NCBI GenBank assembly: GCA_016840425.1
Contig: JAEOSI010000022.1
Location: forward strand, 1-17,463
Length of the DNA stretch: 17,463 bases
Reading direction: 5' to 3'
DNA from: Candidatus Wukongarchaeum yapensis
GTDB taxonomy: Archaea > Asgardarchaeota > Wukongarchaeia > Wukongarchaeales > Wukongarchaeaceae
Position numbers and translations under genes: made by a program. Below are positions 10,548 through 17,463 of this stretch, piece after piece. The notes under the pieces were generated by a model. The model did no database searches. It saw only the letters and a list, made by a program, of their open reading frames with translations, and was not told where the DNA came from. How positions within the stretch are numbered: the first letter of the stretch is position 1; each line of letters starts with the position of its first letter.

Positions 10548-11438
10548 TCAAACGCCTAAAAGCTGATCCACATAATCGAAGTCTATAGTCTCACCCACGA
10601 TATTACAAAATTTATCAAGGTTTTGCAGCCAAACTTTCCTCACATCATCTAAGTTACTATTGGTTTTTTTGGTGTTTCTTTTTTGTGGGTTGAAACGTGT
10701 TATGTTAAGGGTTATCGAGTCTTCTGCAGGGAGGACAAGGTCTTCTATGTAGGGCACTACGCCTAAAACTCTTTTTTTTGTTCTTTTTTCAAGGTATTTT
10801 ATGCCTGGTTCCAGTATCTTTTGGTCTCCTCTAAACTTGTTAATAATAAAGCCTTTAATGAGCTTCTTTTCCGGATATCTTAACAGTTCTAAGGTTCCAA
10901 TTAAGCCTGCAAAAACACCTCCAGGGTCAATATCCCCAATCATCAAAACGGGAGAGTCGAAGATCTGTGCAACACGCATGTTAGAAATATCACTTTTCAT
11001 TAAGTTTATCTCGCTTGGGGCTCCCGCTCCCTCAATAATTACCATATCATAACGGTTCAACAAATCTTTCAATGCTTCTCTAATGCGAGGAAAACCCTCC
11101 TTTATTGCAAAGTATTTCCGATAATCTGGAAAACTCATATCCTGATAAGGTTTTCCAAAAAGGATAATCTGGACTTTTTCCCCTCCTTTAGGCTTTAAAA
11201 GGATCGGATTCATCATTTCAGCGGGTTCTATGTTACACGCCATGGCTTGAAACGCTTGAGCTACAGCAATTTCTCGACCATTAGCGGTAACAAAAGAGTT
11301 TAGAGAAAGATTTTGTGCTTTAAAAGGAGCAACATTATATCCCATCTTAGAGTAAATCCTGCAAAAAGCAGCTGTAAACAAGCTTTTACCACTATGCGTC
11401 AACGTGCTTTGAAACATTAACGAACAAGCCTTTTCCAT
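10548..11438 (-). CDS. Cobyric acid synthase paralog with synthetase domain only (no glutaminase domain)
   Basis: P-loop STLTHSGKS, PFKAQNLSLNS, NPILLKP, IEGAGAPSEINL, INKFRGD and LPAEDS motifs are present. No GxCGGYQ or GTYLHG motif. The frame is intact at 296 aa. Confidence 0.85.
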   Translation of the reverse strand: MEKACSLMFQSTLTHSGKSLFTAAFCRIYSKMGYNVAPFKAQNLSLNSFVTANGREIAVAQAFQAMACNIEPAEMMNPILLKPKGGEKVQIILFGKPYQDMSFPDYRKYFAIKEGFPRIREALKDLLNRYDMVIIEGAGAPSEINLMKSDISNMRVAQIFDSPVLMIGDIDPGGVFAGLIGTLELLRYPEKKLIKGFIINKFRGDQKILEPGIKYLEKRTKKRVLGVVPYIEDLVLPAEDSITLNITRFNPQKRNTKKTNSNLDDVRKVWLQNLDKFCNIVGETIDFDYVDQLLGV

Positions 11439-11443
11439 TCGCC

Positions 11444-13378
11444 TTAACTCTCCACAAAAGGTAACTCTAAGAAGCGAAAAATTTCCGTCATTCTAACTTT
11501 TTCAGTGACAACTCTTGTCAATCTATCCAAACTTTCCTCTATCACTTCACGCCTAGTAACCGATCTTTCATCAAATTTTTCAACAACTTTTTTCTCTCCC
11601 CTCTTCTTTTTAAGATAGTTAATCAACGGTTTACGTAATCCTGGATAATCAAAAACCCCATGCAAATAAGTACCCAAAACCGTCATCTCCTTATTCAAAG
11701 CCCCTTCTAAACAGTCTACATCATCCTTCCCCCGCTTAAAGATATTAAAAGGCGCTTTCACATCTTTTCCCCTCTCAGTCACCCCCATATGAATCTCATA
11801 TCCAGAAATCCTCCTTCTTTTCTCCAGAAATCCTCCATCAATCACTATCTCGCCCTTAACCTGTGTCGTAACCTTATCATAAACGTCAAAAACTGTCACC
11901 ACATCTAAAAGGCCAAGCCCCTCGTATGTAGCGCCAACATCTCCCTCCAATCCCTTTTCATCCACAATTCTTTTTCCTATTATTTGATAGCCACCACAAA
12001 CACCAATAACAGGAACGCCCTCCGCCGCCATTTTAACTATGGTTGAAGCCAAATCAGTATCCCTCAACCATAAAAGATCTTTAACCGTGTTTTTCGTTCC
12101 AGGAACTATTATGAGGGAAACATCCTCAAGCTCCCTTGGAGAACGAATAAACTTAACGTAGACGTCTTCATGACTCGCTAAAGCATCAAAATCGGTAAAA
12201 TTAGAAATTCTTGGCAGACGAATCACGCCAATTACAACACTCGCGTCTCCCCTCGTCCCTTTATCTTTTATACCCACGGAATCCTCTTCAGGAAGTTGCA
12301 GATCTTCAAGGAAAGGAATGATACCCAAGACCGGAATCCTCGTCCTTATTTTCAACTCCACAATTCCTGGATCAAGATTTTTAGGGTTGCCCCTAAACTT
12401 ATTAATAACAGCACCTTTAACAATCCTTTTTTCCGCTTCTGAAAGTAATAAGAGTGTCCCGTAAAGATACGCGAAAACGCCGCCTCGTTCAATATCTGCC
12501 ACTAAAATCGCTGGAAAGTTCTCCTCTACAGCTATTCTAAGGTTTGAAATATCAAAATCTTTAATGTTAATCTCTGCAGGACTACCAGCTCCCTCGATAA
12601 TTATGATGTCAAATTCTTCCTTAAGTTTTTTAAGCGCTTTTTTAACTACCTCAAAACCTTTACCTGTAGAAAAGTTTGCGTAGTATGATCTACCGTCCAT
12701 GTCAGCATAAGGTTTACCAAGAACAATAACCTGGGACATCATGTCTCCTTTAGGTTTAAGCAGTATGGGATTCATCTCAGCCTGTGGTTCCACTTTTGCA
12801 GCAATAGCCTGAAGCGTTTGCGCCCACGCTATCTCCGCCCCTTCTCTCGTCACAAAAGAGTTCAAACTCATATTCTGCGCCTTAAAAGGTGCAACCCTAA
12901 ACCCAGCATCAGAAAAAATCCTACAAAGAGCCGCTACAAGAAGACTCTTACCCGCGTTAGACGAAGTTCCTACCACCATAAGCAACCTAGCATGGTTATC
13001 TCCCTCAAAATTAATACCCAAAATCTTCCGACGAATTTTAAGAAGCTCTTCACGCGTTAATTTTGCCCCACCTTCCACTTCTCTTACTTCTTTTAAAATG
13101 CGTTCAACAACCTCGGGCTCATGAACCCACCTACACTCTTTACAACTCCACCGCCACTTCCTAGAACGTCTCCCTTTTACCATCATACCTCCCGTATAAG
13201 GATCCATACAAGGATAAAAAGGACAAAAACAAAAAGTACAATCCTGTCCCTCAAAATGACAAGTACTCCCATACTTAAGATAATAGGGGCAATCTACCCT
13301 TATACCCACCGGGGCTTTAATCTCTTTTAAATCGTCCCAGCCTTGATTTTGAGCCTTATGTCCTTTTACATTCATCAA
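11444..13378 (-). CDS. cbiP: Cobyric acid synthase with N-terminal Cys-rich small domain
   Basis: GTSSNAGKS, PFKAQNMSLNS, EGAGSPAEIN, RLPRISNFTDFDAL, GVCGGYQ, GYEIH and GTYLHG motifs. About 125-aa N-terminal extension with 8 Cys. Start is TTG 13378 or ATG 13375. Confidence 0.95.
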   Translation of the reverse strand: MMNVKGHKAQNQGWDDLKEIKAPVGIRVDCPYYLKYGSTCHFEGQDCTFCFCPFYPCMDPYTGGMMVKGRRSRKWRWSCKECRWVHEPEVVERILKEVREVEGGAKLTREELLKIRRKILGINFEGDNHARLLMVVGTSSNAGKSLLVAALCRIFSDAGFRVAPFKAQNMSLNSFVTREGAEIAWAQTLQAIAAKVEPQAEMNPILLKPKGDMMSQVIVLGKPYADMDGRSYYANFSTGKGFEVVKKALKKLKEEFDIIIIEGAGSPAEINIKDFDISNLRIAVEENFPAILVADIERGGVFAYLYGTLLLLSEAEKRIVKGAVINKFRGNPKNLDPGIVELKIRTRIPVLGIIPFLEDLQLPEEDSVGIKDKGTRGDASVVIGVIRLPRISNFTDFDALASHEDVYVKFIRSPRELEDVSLIIVPGTKNTVKDLLWLRDTDLASTIVKMAAEGVPVIGVCGGYQIIGKRIVDEKGLEGDVGATYEGLGLLDVVTVFDVYDKVTTQVKGEIVIDGGFLEKRRRISGYEIHMGVTERGKDVKAPFNIFKRGKDDVDCLEGALNKEMTVLGTYLHGVFDYPGLRKPLINYLKKKRGEKKVVEKFDERSVTRREVIEESLDRLTRVVTEKVRMTEIFRFLELPFVES

Positions 13379-13450: not shown

Positions 13451-13466
13451 TAGGTTAATTAACCTA
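13451..13466. promoter_or_regulatory. Perfect 16-bp palindrome, TAGG-N8-CCTA copy 3
   Basis: TAGGTTAATTAACCTA, adjacent to the putative BRE/TATA of cbiP. Confidence 0.55.
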
Positions 13467-13475
13467 CCCTTACTT

Positions 13476-13519
13476 TGTATTACGATTGTATTACAGAACA
13501 CAACTTTTAAGTACTAACT
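13476..13519 (+). promoter_or_regulatory. Tandem GTANTAC boxes + BRE/TATA upstream of the trpD-like gene
   Basis: TGTATTAC-GAT-TGTATTAC-AGAACACAAC-TTTTAAGTA; 37/44 identical to 17160-17203. Confidence 0.7.
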
Positions 13520-13601
13520 TATCAGCGGTTGCGGTATATTTTGGCAAAATTAAACCTATTATACAAATCTGTTAGAACAAAGGTAAAGGAGTTTCAAGGA
13601 A

Positions 13602-14714
13602 ATGGTTTTTGATGGGTTGATGTTGAAAGATTTTGGTGCTAAGGTGTATAGATTAATAAAGGGTAAAAGCCTCACAAGGGAAGAAGTTAGAGAGATGATG
13701 AAACAAACACTTTTAAACGAACAACCAGATCTCCATCAAGGCGCTTTTCTTGCAGCGATAACAGCGAAAGATTCTACTCCTGAGGAGATTGCTGGTTGTT
13801 GGGAAGCTGTATATGAGTATGATACTGTGAAAGTTACTCCAAATGTTTCAGGACCTTTGGTTGAAAATTGTGGCACGGGAATGGATGACATTAAAACTTT
13901 TAATATTAGTACTGCGGCGGCGGTAGTGGGCGCAGCTGGGGGTGTTTATATGGCTAAACATGGGGCAAGGGCTATAACTTCTAAGTGTGGTGCTGTGGAT
14001 ATAGCAGAAGCTTTGGGTGTAGATGTTGAATGTAATCCCGAGCTTGTGGAGAAGAGTATAGAGAACGCTGGAATCGGGCTCTTTAACGGGATGAGTTTAA
14101 AAATTCATTCAAAAATGGCTAGGATTTTGGCTCAAATCAGGTTTGGTTCAATTTTGAACATTTCAGCATCCCTTGCTAATCCCGCCCTTCCACCCTATGG
14201 AGTGAGGGGGGTTTATTCAAAAGATTTAGTCGTGCTTGTTGCCAAAGCGATGAAAGAGATTGGTTATGAAAGGGCTCTTGTGTTTTGCGGTTTGAATGGT
14301 GATCAGACAAAGGTTATAGACGAGATCTCAATCCTTGGTGAAACTTTTATAGCTGAAATTTCTGAAAAGAACGGAATTGCCACGTATACGGTTACCCCTG
14401 AGGAATTTATGATAAAGCGTTGTGATGAGGGCGCGATACTTTCAACAGGAGATGTGGAAAAAGAGAGTTTAAGTCTTTTAAGGATTTTAAGCGGTAAGGA
14501 TAAGGGACCAAGGTTTGAGATATTATGCCTTAATGTTGCCCCCATACTTTACATAACAGGCAAAGCTAAAAGTCTTGGAGAAGGATATAAGATGGCAAAA
14601 GAGATCATTGATTCTGGAAAAGCGATTGATAAGCTTAGAGAATGGCTAAAAGAGCAAAACAGTGACCCTGATAAAGCTGAGAAAAGGCTTGGAAAATTGT
14701 TAGAAAATGCCTAA
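13602..14714 (+). CDS. Anthranilate phosphoribosyltransferase-like protein (glycosyltransferase family 3), probably not acting on anthranilate
   Basis: ENCGTGMD..TFNIST, AKHGAR, LANPA and DEIS match the TrpD fold. The canonical GTGGD and KHGN motifs are altered, and no trp genes lie nearby. Confidence 0.8.
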   Translation: MVFDGLMLKDFGAKVYRLIKGKSLTREEVREMMKQTLLNEQPDLHQGAFLAAITAKDSTPEEIAGCWEAVYEYDTVKVTPNVSGPLVENCGTGMDDIKTFNISTAAAVVGAAGGVYMAKHGARAITSKCGAVDIAEALGVDVECNPELVEKSIENAGIGLFNGMSLKIHSKMARILAQIRFGSILNISASLANPALPPYGVRGVYSKDLVVLVAKAMKEIGYERALVFCGLNGDQTKVIDEISILGETFIAEISEKNGIATYTVTPEEFMIKRCDEGAILSTGDVEKESLSLLRILSGKDKGPRFEILCLNVAPILYITGKAKSLGEGYKMAKEIIDSGKAIDKLREWLKEQNSDPDKAEKRLGKLLENA

Positions 14715-14890
14715 AAAAAGAAAGAAGGAAAAAACCTCCATGCTCTCTTGAAAATAAGTTTTGTGGAATTTTCCACGCGATTTTATTTTTTTTGCTCTTT
14801 TAATCTCGTTTTTCTTTTTTAGCTCCTTGATTTCGACGCTTTTGCTTTTCTTTCGAGGTAGTTGGCACGACTTTAGAAGGTGACACTTTG

Positions 14891-15943
14891 ATGAAGGCAG
14901 CGATTTTGAAGCGTGTATGCGAGATGAAAGTAATGGAATTTGAGAGGCCTCAAGTTGTTTCTGGTGGTCTTTTAGTCGAGGTTGGCGCGTGTGGGATATG
15001 TCGTACTGATGTTAAAATGTATCACAAGGGTCACAGGGATTTAAAATTGCCTCGTGTCCTCGGTCATGAAGTTAGTGGTACCATTCTGGAGGTTGGGAGA
15101 GAGGTAAAAGAATATTTTGATGTGGATATGCGTGTTCAAATAGCGCCAGGCATTGTTTGCGGCATGTGTCGTTACTGTCTTATGGACGCTCCTAATATGT
15201 GTGATCGTATGCGCATTATTGGATTTCATCTTGATGGAGGGTTTGCGGAATACATATGGGTGCCTCCTAGCGCTATTAGGAGTGGTTGTGTAAATCCCCT
15301 TCCTCCAAGTCTTTCTTTTGAGGTCGCGTCTCTTGTAGAGTTGTTGGCATGTTGCATTAATAGTCAGCGGCTTGCCAGGGTGGGATTAAAGGACGTTGTA
15401 GTGGTTATTGGTTGCGGTCCTGCTGGAGTGTTGCAGGCTAAACTTGCTCGTTTTTTTGGAGCAGAAAGCGTGATAGTTATTGAGAAGGACCCTAAAAGGG
15501 TGGAGATGGCAAAACAGGTTGTTAGAGAAGCTGACATGGTTGTCAACAGTTCTTCTGAAGATCCTTTGGAGGTGGTTGCTTCTGTTACGGATGGTAGAGG
15601 GGCAGATGTAGTTATTATCGCTTGTTCTAATGGTAATGCCCAGCTTCAAGGTTTGGAGATGCTTGCTAAACGTGGGCGTTTAAGCATGTTTAGCGGACTT
15701 CCTTCAGAAACCCCAGTTATCTTGTTGAACAGTAATGAGATTCATTATAAAGAGGCACAAATTATTGGAGCTTATGGTTGTACTTCTTTACAAAATCATC
15801 AAGCTATATGGTTGCTTGGAAGTGAAAAAATAGACGTTTCTGGTTTGATAACTCATCGTTTTAAGCTTGATGATATACTAGAAGGGTTCAAGATCATAGA
15901 AATCAAAAAAGGACTTAAAGCCGTGATTAAAACAAAAAAATAG
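14891..15943 (+). CDS. Zn-dependent medium-chain dehydrogenase (sorbitol/iditol/threonine dehydrogenase-like)
   Basis: Catalytic Zn motifs CGICRTD and LGHE, structural Zn CGMCRYC-x7-C, and NAD-binding IGCGPAG. ATG 14891 follows an in-frame TTG at 14888. Confidence 0.9.
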   Translation: MKAAILKRVCEMKVMEFERPQVVSGGLLVEVGACGICRTDVKMYHKGHRDLKLPRVLGHEVSGTILEVGREVKEYFDVDMRVQIAPGIVCGMCRYCLMDAPNMCDRMRIIGFHLDGGFAEYIWVPPSAIRSGCVNPLPPSLSFEVASLVELLACCINSQRLARVGLKDVVVVIGCGPAGVLQAKLARFFGAESVIVIEKDPKRVEMAKQVVREADMVVNSSSEDPLEVVASVTDGRGADVVIIACSNGNAQLQGLEMLAKRGRLSMFSGLPSETPVILLNSNEIHYKEAQIIGAYGCTSLQNHQAIWLLGSEKIDVSGLITHRFKLDDILEGFKIIEIKKGLKAVIKTKK

Positions 15944-16072
15944 GAGGTATTTTTGAGAAAATTTCAACCTTTTCTTTGTGGATAAAGATGTAAAAGATGA
16001 GAGAATGGAATGATTCGGGTTTTTTACCAGTTAATTTTTTAGTATAAAGTGAAGTTTTTGATGTAGTAAAGG

Positions 16073-16088
16073 TAAATATACGTAGTAC
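16073..16088 (+). promoter_or_regulatory. TATA-like box followed by one GTAGTAC box upstream of the RHH-CblS gene
   Basis: TAAATATA-C-GTAGTAC; a 1-mismatch box TGTAGTAA lies at 16062-16069. Confidence 0.35.
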
Positions 16089-16159
16089 TAGTTTTTGAGT
16101 GTTTTTTGATAAGGGGATAAAGTCACTAGCTTTAGACTAAGCCACAGGAGTGGGTAATA

Positions 16160-17089
16160 GTGGGAACTAAGGTAGTAAACTGTCGTTTACCAGAAAAGAC
16201 CGTAGATGAATTAAACGCTTTTGCTAAACGTTTCAACTTAACTAAATCTAGCATAATAAGACAAGCTTTAATCACTTACATAGAAATGCTAAAAAACGCG
16301 AACCAAATCTTGGTTCCGAATTTTAAGGTTAATCCTTCACAATTAGCAATAAACAGAAGACATAACTGCACTTTTATACGATTCCCAAATAAAATGGTCT
16401 TAGTGTTAGGTTGTATTTCCTCAGGTAGTATCGGGCCTAATTCTATGGATAAATTAAAGGTTAGCGGGTTTCTTCTAGGAAAGTTAACTACTAGGGCCGC
16501 TTTAATGGACATTATATCGATTAATGCTTGGCCAATATCAATTGCAGCAACATTATGTGTGAAAATGGACCCAACAGGATCGGAAATAATAAGGGGAATT
16601 AAAACAGAAATGGTTAGAGCAGATCTAGATCCGTTAATTTTAACCGTAGATACGGAAGAGAATTTTGATACCGAACAAACAGGCATCGGCCTAACTGTTA
16701 TAGGATTAACTCATGAAGAAGATTTGAAAATCGGAACAAGTCAAATAGGTGACGTGATAATAGCTGTAGGAAAACCATGTGTTGGTCAAGAAGTACTAGA
16801 AGCAAAATCACGTAAAGAAATAGCGGATTTAAAAGATATTATAAGCTTTTTGAAGCTTGAGTATGTACATGGAATAATGCCTGTTGATACAGAAGGAATA
16901 CTTAGCAAAGCTAACCTATTAGCTCATTCGATCGGTAAAAATGTAAAGTTCTACGAAAACATCAAATTTGATTTAGAGAAGTCAGCTGGTCCTTCTACAA
17001 CAGTGTTAGTTACGGTCGACAAGAATAAAGTAAAAGAGTTTTTAAAATATTTGTATAAACCTTATTCTCTTATTGGAGAAATCGTCTAA
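16160..17089 (+). CDS. Ribbon-helix-helix DNA-binding domain fused to an alpha-ribazole kinase (CblS)/PurM-like domain; putative transcription factor
   Basis: Residues 1-45 (KVVNCRLPEKTVDELNAFAKRFNLTKSSIIRQAL) follow the CopG/NikR RHH pattern. The remainder has CblS-type motifs MDPTGSEIIRGI, TEENF, QTGIGLTVIG, VGKPCVGQEV and KSAGPSTTVLV. GTG start 7 nt after AGGAGTG. Confidence 0.8.
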   Translation: MGTKVVNCRLPEKTVDELNAFAKRFNLTKSSIIRQALITYIEMLKNANQILVPNFKVNPSQLAINRRHNCTFIRFPNKMVLVLGCISSGSIGPNSMDKLKVSGFLLGKLTTRAALMDIISINAWPISIAATLCVKMDPTGSEIIRGIKTEMVRADLDPLILTVDTEENFDTEQTGIGLTVIGLTHEEDLKIGTSQIGDVIIAVGKPCVGQEVLEAKSRKEIADLKDIISFLKLEYVHGIMPVDTEGILSKANLLAHSIGKNVKFYENIKFDLEKSAGPSTTVLVTVDKNKVKEFLKYLYKPYSLIGEIV

Positions 17090-17158
17090 AACTTTTTTTA
17101 AATTAGCGAAAACGTGCCAAAATAACTTAAAGAACAACGAAACATTTATTCTAAACTT

Positions 17159-17203
17159 CTGTACTACAACTGTAGTACAGAACACAACTTTTAAATATCA
17201 ACT
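17159..17203 (+). promoter_or_regulatory. Tandem GTANTAC boxes (perfect 10-bp inverted repeat) + BRE/TATA upstream of cobT
   Basis: CTGTACTACA-AC-TGTAGTACAG followed by AACACAAC-TTTTAAATA. Confidence 0.72.
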
Positions 17204-17315
17204 CTTAACCTAAGAGCAGAAAAACACTTACTCTACACTTACGTACTACAATATTATTAACCCTACAATGAAAATAACCCTCGATCTGAGCGTATTTTGA
17301 AGGAGGTAAATTTTT

Positions 17316-17463
17316 ATGAAGGACGTAATTTTTGCTCGTGCAAAGGAAAAAGGCGAGGAATTTGTCAGGAAGATAAAGGGTAAAACCCCTGTTTTTGTAT
17401 GCGTTATAGGCAACTCTGAAACAGGAAAAATACCTGGCTTATCCGCTGCAGGCGCAGTTCCAG
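17316..17463 (+). CDS. cobT: Archaeal-type nicotinate-nucleotide:benzimidazole phosphoribosyltransferase, N-terminal 49 aa (runs off window)
   Basis: Manual translation MKDVIFARAKEKGEEFVRKIKGKTPVFVCVIGNSETGKIPGLSAAGAVP. ETxxIPGxSAAGA is the N-terminal signature of the archaeal CobT (MJ1598-type) family. SD AGGAGGT at 17301-17307. Confidence 0.82.
   Translation, partial: MKDVIFARAKEKGEEFVRKIKGKTPVFVCVIGNSETGKIPGLSAAGAVP

Follow-up and report, generated by a model that had tools for sequence, protein, structure and literature searches.

Many ribbon-helix-helix (RHH) proteins, including Arc, MetJ, CopG, NikR and PutA, are repressors, and the DNA binding of NikR and MetJ is linked to a small ligand. 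Archaeal factors with activating sites just upstream of the BRE/TATA element include SurR, TrmBL1/Tgr, Ptr2 and GvpE. The cobalamin riboswitch typically shuts genes off when cobamide is plentiful. CblS and CblT reportedly function in alpha-ribazole salvage in Listeria and Geobacillus, as Gray and Escalante-Semerena are said to have described in 2010. In the archaeal riboflavin kinase/regulator RbkR, a winged-HTH domain is combined with the fold of a CTP-dependent riboflavin kinase, and the DNA binding and effectors of RbkR were measured (Rodionova et al. 2017, PMC5397151). RbkR operators are located 1–12 nt upstream of promoter elements (PMC5397151).

The window analysed in this study is the 17,463-nt contig JAEOSI010000022.1 (GCA_016840425.1) from the 2.16-Mb genome of the Asgard archaeon Candidatus Wukongarchaeum yapensis. 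The initial annotation described two similar 44-bp elements at 13476–13519 (copy A) and 17160–17203 (copy B). Recounting reproduced the claimed identity of 37/44 positions and confirmed the unbroken 19-nt run (13492–13510 = 17176–17194). The GTAnTAC pairs 11 bp apart, centre to centre, were found in both copies. Two boxes per copy were thus correctly noted, but instead of tandem repeats, each pair is better regarded as a single palindrome whose two boxes are themselves symmetric. The 18-bp palindrome of copy A, GTATTACGATTGTATTAC, has no assigned strand and is located at 13477–13494, with boxes at 13477–13483 and 13488–13494. The palindrome of copy B, GTACTACAACTGTAGTAC, likewise unstranded, is located at 17161–17178, with boxes at 17161–17167 and 17172–17178.

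The 19-mer and the exact double box occur in the whole genome only at copies A and B and on contig C203, an allelic copy of the 3′-end of the window with 93% identity. This is far beyond chance, because base composition predicts only 0.02 mismatch-free double boxes per genome. The boxes are invariant in C203 and in the orthologous locus L009, whose RHH-CblS is 79% identical to that of the window, and the central spacer alone varies (AACT / AATT / ATGT). The loss of conservation in orthologous loci, which would have refuted the initial annotation, was therefore not observed. A solitary GTAGTAC box (16082–16088, unstranded) precedes the RHH-cblS start by 72 nt. With one GTAnTAC per roughly 9 kb across the genome, the chance of such a box is roughly 2%, and the box is not present in L009. 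Within what is presumed to be the cobT leader, the window, C203 and L009 all keep a further GTACTAC box (17243–17249, unstranded).

The boxes had been placed just upstream of a BRE/TATA-like element, and a TATA-like octamer does follow 10 nt beyond the palindrome in both copies. The putative trpD-like promoter (13495–13512, + strand) consists of the spacer/BRE-like AGAACACAAC and the TATA-like octamer TTTTAAGT (13505–13512). The putative cobT promoter (17179–17196, + strand) consists of AGAACACAAC and the octamer TTTTAAAT (17189–17196), and its counterpart in L009 is TTTTATAT with unchanged spacing. Both promoters were read from the sequence without TSS data. The palindrome-to-TATA gap is 9–12 nt at 24 target promoters of other lineages and 9–10 nt at three promoters of the Asgard genome, which leaves 2–3 nt between the operator end and the expected BRE. 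The ATG of ANME-type loci is 22–26 nt past the TATA box, a geometry of leaderless mRNA (also without TSS data). The core promoter is TTTATATA at btuF and TTTAAAAA in ANME-type loci. These predicted core promoters look strong, which would be unexpected if they depended on an activator.

The RHH-cblS gene (16160–17089, + strand) is located between the two copies and encodes the presumed regulator. Pfam RHH_1 covered residues 9–42 with 22.0 bits (cut-off 20.5), and CopG (1b01) was matched in a PDB profile search (E=0.017). The AF2 model (pLDDT 81.5) showed an extended N-terminus and helices at 12–25 and 29–51, followed by a PurM-like fold. Foldseek against the PDB matched SelD, ThiL, HypE and PurM (E 1e-14 to 1e-11, probability 1.00), and the protein scored 0.97 to CblS-named clusters in the atlas. 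The predicted N-terminal RHH fold and the PurM-like (CblS-like) fold are thus supported by profiles and the structure model. The Asp of the GCDSxGGIG motif, whose catalytic role is inferred from PurM-family knowledge, was replaced by I or T in 6/6 RHH-fused proteins. Stand-alone CblS-like homologs covering this region had D in 10/11 and E in 1/11. "Kinase" may be a misnomer for the fused domain, because it lacks the Asp (or E) kept in the stand-alone proteins. No paper describing an RHH-CblS regulator was found. The gene is followed by a terminator-like T7 run (17093–17099, + strand) after its stop codon, and oligo-T termination is established for archaea.

The trpD-like gene (13602–14714, + strand) encodes a phosphoribosyltransferase paralog of 370 aa. 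It scored 264 bits on TIGR01245, compared with 410 bits for the canonical trpD of the trpDCFBA operon (contig C106). Its conserved partner is a Zn-dependent dehydrogenase of the Tdh/MDR-like type (14888–15943, + strand; Pfam ADH_N, ADH_zinc_N). The pair has at least 543 relatives among species genomes, with 57–68% identity. Zn-ADH adjoins the trpD-like homologs of this identity range in 77/80 loci, and cobT is near in 25/80. The archaeal-type cobT (17316–17463, + strand; NCBIfam TIGR00303, PRK04447) is represented by its 5′ part and cut by the contig end. C203 carries the complete cobT, followed by a nicotinate-PRTase-like gene.

A PWM trained solely on 51 Bathyarchaeia RHH-cblS upstream sites was scanned over the 2.16-Mb Asgard genome. 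The 11-bp box spacing, centre to centre, is also present in this PWM. Its top four matches were the cobT allele on C203 (25.7 bits), cobT (copy B, 24.0 bits), trpD-like (copy A, 22.5 bits) and a btuFCD-like operon (18.4 bits), and the maximum in shuffled genomes was 17.4 bits. At ≤1 mismatch, the whole genome has no double box outside the trpD-like and cobT promoters (with C203) and C69:12737. This last site is upstream of a Peripla_BP_2/FecCD/ABC_tran (btuFCD-like) operon, which adjoins cobN. The genome scan suggested in the initial annotation thus recovered sites before cobamide genes, and a spread of the motif over many unrelated promoters, which would have argued against the regulon, was not seen. 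A second palindrome, TAGGTT-N4-AACCTR, is located 10–60 nt from two of the three operator sites.

The palindrome was also found near RHH-cblS in ANME-1, Methanosarcinales, Methanomicrobiales, Methanolliviera, Methanomethylicia and Bathyarchaeia, where ADH/trpD-like, cobT or CblT-like transporter genes have it 9–12 nt ahead of their TATA box. The exception is L016, where RHH-cblS is 52% identical and no site was found within 8 kb. With ≤2 mismatches allowed, the window consensus matched 30 times in the 6,000 positions ahead of 80 Bathyarchaeia RHH-cblS genes and once in 905,716 background positions. Twelve of 80 trpD-like loci carry RHH-cblS, and in every one of them a site scoring ≥14 bits directly precedes ADH/trpD-like. 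Sixty-five of the 80 (Methanothrix, Methanomassiliicoccales and bacteria) lack RHH-cblS and have no site. The lineage counts include related genomes, so these statistics overstate independence. The site is inside the 77-nt gap between divergent RHH-cblS and trpD-like genes in L106, and L108 has one site before ADH-trpD-like and another before cobT. CblT-like ECF S-component genes are further operator targets. Such genes accompany RHH-cblS in Methanomethylicia and at least 13 Bathyarchaeia loci, with a generic S-component assignment (PF12822); no CblT-type S-component gene is present in the window. A site 16–26 nt before the start codon of RHH-cblS itself was found in Bathyarchaeia and ANME. 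The RHH-cblS promoter of the window has the solitary box only and no double box.

The cobalamin riboswitch RF00174 (106–117 bits) is located directly upstream of ADH-trpD-like(-cobT-cobS) in 9/13 bacterial loci, and it controls ADH-trpD-like-cobT-cobS and btuFCD modules in Dehalococcoidia and Calditrichales. No RF00174 was detected in the window, in the 92%-complete genome or in 15 archaeal trpD-like loci, while the bacterial controls were positive. The claimed functional link between trpD-like and cobT is supported by the shared operator and by the riboswitch in the same position of the bacterial module. Their membership in one regulon is supported by the motif kept in orthologous loci and by the top ranks of both sites under the foreign-trained matrix.

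Sequence comparison established the motif, where it lies, and that it goes with RHH-cblS and cobamide genes; that RHH-CblS binds it, what the effector is and which sign the control has are inferences. We consider it probable, without binding, TSS or expression data, that an RHH-CblS dimer of dimers binds the operator and that the targets form one cobamide regulon. The initial annotation proposed RHH-CblS as an activator; its role as regulator is supported by co-occurrence of the motif with RHH-cblS in six lineages, but activation has not been shown. The operator may be real and bound by another transcription factor, with RHH-CblS only a regulon member. We regard this as unlikely, although there are no binding data for RHH-CblS, TAGGTT-N4-AACCTR near the operator sites points to at least one more factor at these promoters, and L108, L135, L137 and L198 have sites without RHH-cblS in the examined 5–8 kb. 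The motif tracks RHH-cblS in Asgard, Bathyarchaeia, Methanomethylicia, ANME-1, Methanosarcinales, Methanomicrobiales and Methanolliviera, usually at ≤30 nt from its start codon, and no other DNA-binding gene is constant near the motif in the loci compared. A pair of self-symmetric boxes with 11-bp spacing matches the way in which an RHH dimer of dimers recognises DNA. The N-x-R of the RHH beta-strand is retained wherever the TAC core is retained, and lineage-specific strand variants track lineage-specific outer operator bases, which also speaks against another factor, with the reservation that both patterns are confounded by phylogeny.

The 44-bp similarity could also be a mere relic of a recent cobT-promoter duplication at the trpD-like/ADH insertion, without regulatory meaning. 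A 2.65-kb segment (13471–16118) is missing from L009, and copy A begins 6 nt inside its left edge. The 10 nt between palindrome and TATA box are identical in copies A and B but different at btuF and in other lineages. The best reading of the identity outside the palindrome (AGAACACAAC-TTTTAA) is that a whole promoter module was duplicated at the edge of this extra segment, and the 19-nt identity beyond the boxes more likely reflects such shared ancestry than the operator. Duplication accounts for the flanks and not for the palindrome, which stands at the same TATA distance before trpD-like/ADH in lineages with unrelated flanks and was recovered by a matrix trained on other lineages. For the palindrome the relic explanation is already contradicted by these two results, and we think it very improbable as a whole. 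An RNA or DNA structure element (a hairpin terminator, leader element or gene-cassette recombination site) seems even harder to sustain. Copy B and the L012 site are just past the RHH-cblS stop codon and copy A is on the boundary of the extra segment, as such an element might be. However, no T-run follows the hairpin (the T7 run comes before it), there was no Rfam match, and fixed boxes with a varying spacer are the signature of a protein site. The ANME-type site is also outside the target transcript, because it is upstream of a TATA box that itself precedes the ATG by 22–26 nt.

The preferred reading, an operator bound by RHH-CblS, leaves the sign of control to be weighed. RHH-CblS may be a pure repressor, whose corepressor-bound form, 2–3 bp from the BRE, would block TFB/TBP and, at its own promoter, RNA polymerase. 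The corepressor would be alpha-ribazole phosphate, cobamide or a nucleotide, and such control would mirror the OFF logic of the riboswitch. We hold this possible but do not favour it. It agrees with the strong-looking core promoters at btuF and in ANME-type loci, with the site shortly ahead of the regulator's start codon in Bathyarchaeia and ANME, and with general knowledge that the bacterial counterpart is typically an OFF riboswitch and that most known RHH proteins repress. Against it, sites just upstream of BRE/TATA go with activation in the archaeal factors listed at the outset, and the constant 9–12 nt gap suggests a fixed protein–protein contact and not mere occlusion. The RbkR operators provide the same argument (PMC5397151).

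We propose that the conserved core of both 44-bp copies would serve as an operator of two symmetric GTAnTAC boxes one helical turn apart, most likely bound as a palindrome by a dimer of dimers of the RHH-CblS encoded between them. It would mark three promoters within a single cobamide supercluster, those of trpD-like/ADH, of cobT (with the NaMN-forming PRTase-like gene behind it) and of the btuFCD-like corrinoid transporter. The PurM-like/CblS-like domain may sense lower-ligand status (alpha-ribazole, its phosphate, or a nucleotide). In this way it would set the amount of lower-ligand activation and uptake machinery, the same task as that of the bacterial cobalamin riboswitch. RHH-CblS might activate by contacting TFB/TBP from its fixed upstream position, as proposed for RbkR, or repress by crowding the BRE. 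The two options are roughly even at the targets. The site 9–12 nt upstream of the TATA box fits activation, and the site 16–26 nt before the own start codon in Bathyarchaeia and ANME fits autorepression, which is likely where the site falls between the TATA box and that start codon.

More tentatively, and with somewhat less than even confidence, we speculate that archaea of at least three phyla swap the cobalamin riboswitch for a protein switch. In it, an RHH domain would be fused to an alpha-ribazole-kinase fold that has given up catalysis; the fusion would respond to an intermediate of the lower ligand and control uptake, CobT and the uncharacterised TrpD-like/Zn-dehydrogenase pair. The lineages may be Asgard, Thermoproteota (Bathyarchaeia, Methanomethylicia, Methanolliviera) and Halobacteriota (ANME-1, Methanosarcinales, Methanomicrobiales, Syntrophoarchaeum). 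If this is true, the switch, fixed 2–3 bp upstream of the BRE, turns CblT-like/BtuFCD-like uptake on or off, and the TrpD-like/Zn-dehydrogenase pair represents a step in cobamide lower-ligand or nucleotide-loop metabolism that has gone unrecognised.

The cobalamin riboswitch likewise acts on the ADH-trpD-like-cobT-cobS and btuFCD modules. Being an RNA, it responds to the finished corrinoid itself, whereas the archaeal switch would be protein–DNA and would probably sense a lower-ligand intermediate. The C-terminal domain of RHH-CblS resembles CblS-named clusters, and CblT-like ECF S-component genes are divergent or adjacent and carry operators in Bathyarchaeia and Methanomethylicia. Bacterial CblS, however, has no DNA-binding domain, and the GCDS(A)GG of stand-alone proteins reads C(I/T)SSG in the fused clade. 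NikR, MetJ, Arc and CopG share an N-terminal RHH domain with RHH-CblS, and the operators that their dimers of dimers recognise likewise consist of symmetric subsites spaced by roughly one helical turn. RHH-CblS differs in its sensor, a 250-residue PurM-superfamily fold that is not ACT-like or minimal, and in being archaeal with a site upstream of BRE/TATA. The "trigger enzymes" PutA, BirA and NadR also carry an enzyme fold together with a DNA-binding domain on a single polypeptide and control their own pathway, PutA with an RHH domain; they are bacterial and catalytically active, whereas catalysis by RHH-CblS is doubtful. RbkR, like RHH-CblS, joins a DNA-binding domain with a kinase fold that belongs to the vitamin pathway concerned, has operators before biosynthesis genes, vitamin transporters and its own gene, and stands in for a bacterial riboswitch. 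The RHH-CblS motif meets this pattern of pathway, transporter and own gene across lineages. RHH-CblS would act in the cobamide lower-ligand pathway and lacks the Asp of the stand-alone motif. It is an analogue of RbkR and not a member, because it consists of RHH and PurM-like domains instead of winged-HTH and riboflavin kinase domains.

Contig C178, the window, belongs to an Asgard MAG of 2.16 Mb and 277 contigs with a completeness of 92%. Its right end carries a zf-like+CobQ gene on the minus strand (11444–13378), a trpD-like gene (13602–14714), a Zn-dehydrogenase gene (ADH, 14888–15943), the RHH-CblS gene (16160–17089; 309 aa, RHH domain N-terminal) and the first 49 codons of an archaeal-type cobT (from 17316). 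The remainder is a hem/cbi corrin cluster. The nearest database copy of RHH-CblS carries the label 'Asgard group archaeon'. Contig C203 of the same genome is an allelic copy of 16741–17463 with 93.2% identity (88% amino-acid identity in cblS), so the bin mixes two close strains. C203 covers the 3′ end of RHH-cblS and the cobT promoter, bears a perfect palindrome, and also supplies the complete cobT, followed by a QRPTase-family (nicotinate-PRTase-like) gene and a 378-aa ORF without a Pfam match. After the zf-like+CobQ fusion of 644 aa comes a separate CobQ N-terminal half of 296 aa (10548–13378). The region 10911–12982 has no counterpart in L009, the locus of a relative, which keeps a zf-like ORF of 129 aa and a CbiA fragment of 118 aa instead. 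This suggests that cobQ was partly duplicated or deleted between these close relatives.

The comparison of the promoters of the trpD-like gene and cobT reproduced the sequence features described in the initial annotation. The stretches 13476–13519 and 17160–17203 were equal at 37/44 positions with an unbroken identical run of 19 nt, and each held two GTAnTAC boxes with a centre-to-centre distance of 11 bp beside a TATA-like element. Because each box is symmetric in itself, the pair forms an 18-bp palindrome, which is GTATTACGATTGTATTAC in copy A (13477–13494, trpD-like promoter) and GTACTACAACTGTAGTAC in copy B (17161–17178, cobT promoter). The TATA-like octamer starts 10 nt past either palindrome.

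Genome-wide, the only occurrences of the 19-mer and of the exact double box were copies A and B and the copy on C203. Allowing ≤1 mismatch in the double box added one new place, C69:12737. This site is followed after 9 nt by a TTTATATA box and stands before a Peripla_BP_2/FecCD/ABC_tran operon (btuFCD-like), which comes directly after cobN. In the sister genome G001, of the same genus, the hem/cbi cluster of the window (88–93% identity) and the btuF region, with its site in a 98.5%-identical stretch, share one contig (C11); C178 and C69 therefore belong to one cobamide supercluster of approximately 45 kb. The occurrence of the motif at many unrelated promoters would have refuted a common regulon, and the genome scan showed three promoters, all of them cobamide-related. 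A weight matrix trained solely on 51 Bathyarchaeia sites gave its four top scores in the Asgard genome at C203 (25.7 bits), window 17161 (24.0), window 13477 (22.5) and C69:12737 (18.4). Three shuffled-genome controls peaked at 17.1–17.4 bits. Two weaker candidates scored within the shuffled-genome range and were set aside, namely C141:1344 (16.3 bits), inside a helicase-like CDS, and C43:5531 (14.5 bits), before a HEAT-repeat gene.

A second palindrome, TAGGTTAATTAACCTA, is located at 13451–13466 and precedes operator A by 10 nt. The genome contains just three matches to the strict pattern TAGGTT-N4-AACCT[AG], namely this one and two in the btuF intergenic region (C69:12660–12675 and C69:12682–12697), 40–60 nt from the third operator. 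A half-site TTAACCTA follows the cobT TATA box (17205–17212). The second palindrome is probably the site of another factor at cobamide promoters.

The presumed regulator has an RHH_1 domain above the Pfam cut-off, and a profile of 23 homologs matched CopG in a PDB search. The AF2 model (pLDDT 81.5) showed two N-terminal helices and then a PurM-like fold, and its top Foldseek matches were SelD, ThiL, PurM and HypE. The C-terminal part adjoins clusters named CblS/alpha-ribazole kinase in the atlas. All six RHH-fused proteins examined carry C(I/T)SSG and (D/N/H)TE(E/D)N, whereas the stand-alone relatives carry GCDS(A)GG and GS(Y/T)E.N. The beta-strand N-x-R of the RHH domain is conserved. Across lineages, its variants go along with variation in the outer bases of the boxes, a suggestive pattern that is confounded by descent. 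G001 also has a module of another type on contig C65 (3502–5438), in which a cobT only 41% identical to that of the window directly precedes a stand-alone CblS-like gene without RHH and with the Asp motif intact. This module adjoins purH and an alkaline-phosphatase-like gene, and no GTAnTAC box was found in its 11 kb.

RHH-CblS homologs were collected and their contigs were then inspected for sites. The motif is conserved in orthologous loci, as the regulon proposal required. In the cobT promoter of L009, whose regulator is 79% identical, both boxes and their spacing are kept and the TATA box is better; the cobT palindromes of the window, C203 and L009 differ solely in the two central spacer bases. 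In Methanomethylicia (locus L012/L026, 52% identical), a TATA box follows the palindrome after 10 nt, and the genes behind it encode an ECF S-component (CblT-like) and a PfkB kinase. A single-protein search of genome contigs for RHH-CblS returned no match. The alignment-based scan of species genomes yielded 80 loci encoding the full fusion, almost all in Bathyarchaeia, and the palindrome was nearly always within 80 nt upstream of the RHH-cblS gene. With ≤2 mismatches, the window-derived consensus matched 30 times in 6,000 upstream positions versus once in 905,716 other positions, and this lone background match is the Methanomethylicia target site. Complete Bathyarchaeal genomes contained few additional sites, located before genes for CblT-like or QueT/ECF-S-like membrane proteins. 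One locus remains unexplained: L016 (P0007), with an RHH-CblS 52% identical, has no site within 8 kb. The 40 other Asgard genomes gave 0–3 matches at ≤1 mismatch, as many as a control with the pattern reversed. The motif is therefore not shared across the phylum. G001, which has the stand-alone cblS, was rejected as a 'no RHH, no motif' control, since C11 ends inside cobQ and the orthologous RHH-cblS region is simply unassembled.

In other lineages, the operator was also seen before a sodium:solute-symporter-family gene (L135:6169). In L109, L110 and L114, it precedes genes for 190–216-aa membrane proteins without a Pfam match that are QueT/ECF S-component-like (atlas 0.90–0.98). The genes in these four loci are possibly new vitamin-precursor transporters.

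The functional link between the trpD-like gene and cobT proposed in the initial annotation gained support from the wider family. A canonical trpDCFBA operon is present on another contig (C106), and its trpD scored 410 bits versus 264 bits for the window paralog, with 37% identity between them. The paralog is a member of a large subfamily (57–68% identity). At least 543 relatives of the TrpD-like PRTase/Zn-dehydrogenase pair were found in species genomes, including Methanothrix, Methanomassiliicoccales, ANME-1, Dehalococcoidia, Aquificota and others; the pair adjoins cobT/cobS and is under a cobalamin riboswitch in bacteria. Of 80 loci, 77 had the trpD-like gene paired with the Zn-dehydrogenase and 25 had it near cobT. 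Full-length RHH-cblS was present in 12 of these 80 loci (ANME-1, Methanosarcinales, Methanomicrobiales, a Halobacteria-labelled MAG and Methanolliviera), and in all 12 a site of ≥14 bits immediately precedes the ADH/trpD-like pair. Another three loci had a site with no regulator gene within reach, and 65 had neither. The resulting 2 × 2 table is 12/3/0/65, although related loci are not independent. In L106, RHH-cblS is divergent from the trpD-like gene with the palindrome within the 77-nt gap; L108 resembles the window, with one site before ADH–trpD-like and another before cobT. Judged from this gene context, the trpD-like gene belongs to the core targets and is not a passenger.

Relative to L009, the window has an additional 2.65-kb segment (13471–16118), which starts 6 nt before copy A and holds the promoter, the trpD-like gene, ADH and part of the next spacer. 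Copies A and B share the same 10 nt between palindrome and TATA box, and these differ at btuF and elsewhere. In L108 and L135, the two promoters within each genome likewise resemble each other beyond the palindrome. The simplest reading of a similarity of 37/44, and not just 14/18, would be that the whole promoter module was copied or homogenised.

The distance from palindrome end to TATA box was 9–12 nt, mostly 11, in 24 target promoters of these lineages. The TATA assignment in ANME-type loci is firm, because the box lies 22–26 nt from the ATG, the signature of leaderless archaeal mRNA. In ANME and Bathyarchaeia, the RHH-cblS start codon lies 16–26 nt away on the opposite side of the palindrome; thus, a single site could serve autorepression on one side and, on the other, exert its effect from just ahead of the BRE. 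The sites of RbkR are placed alike, and its authors interpreted this placement as activation (PMC5397151). The strong core promoters would speak against activation, and the sign of control is left undecided. At the expected cobT transcription start, there is an inverted repeat, CTCTTA-ACC-TAAGAG (17202–17216), kept in C203. A single GTACTAC box approximately 25 nt beyond it (17243–17249) is kept in C203 and L009.

To our knowledge, the regulation of cobamide (B12) metabolism in archaea is largely unknown. We found no literature on the RHH-CblS regulator or any archaeal cobamide transcription factor, with most subscription journals outside the search. The locus offers a concrete candidate regulator–operator pair with three target promoters in one genome, its binding being inferred, and dozens of comparable promoters exist in methane- and alkane-cycling archaea that have not been cultured. 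Because sediment and syntrophic communities are shaped by B12 exchange, it is useful to know what these archaea sense and import. New here are an Asgard example with its three target promoters, the placing of the trpD-like/ADH pair among the core targets, and the equivalence to the riboswitch.

Archaea generally lack the cobalamin riboswitch that regulates cobamide metabolism in bacteria. None was detected in 15 archaeal loci, the window or its genome (92% complete), and an Rfam search of the window and the 'orphan' Bathyarchaeal sites gave no match. Among 13 bacterial loci with the same module (Dehalococcoidia/Dehalococcoidales, Calditrichales), 9 carry a cobalamin riboswitch (106–117 bits) immediately before ADH–trpD-like(–cobT–cobS), and L107 has another before btuFCD. 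The archaeal operator therefore occupies the riboswitch position. Two independent regulatory signals tie this uncharacterised, very widespread TrpD-like/Zn-dehydrogenase pair to cobamide metabolism, and the presence of both the archaeal operator and the bacterial riboswitch on it points to a missing enzymatic step.
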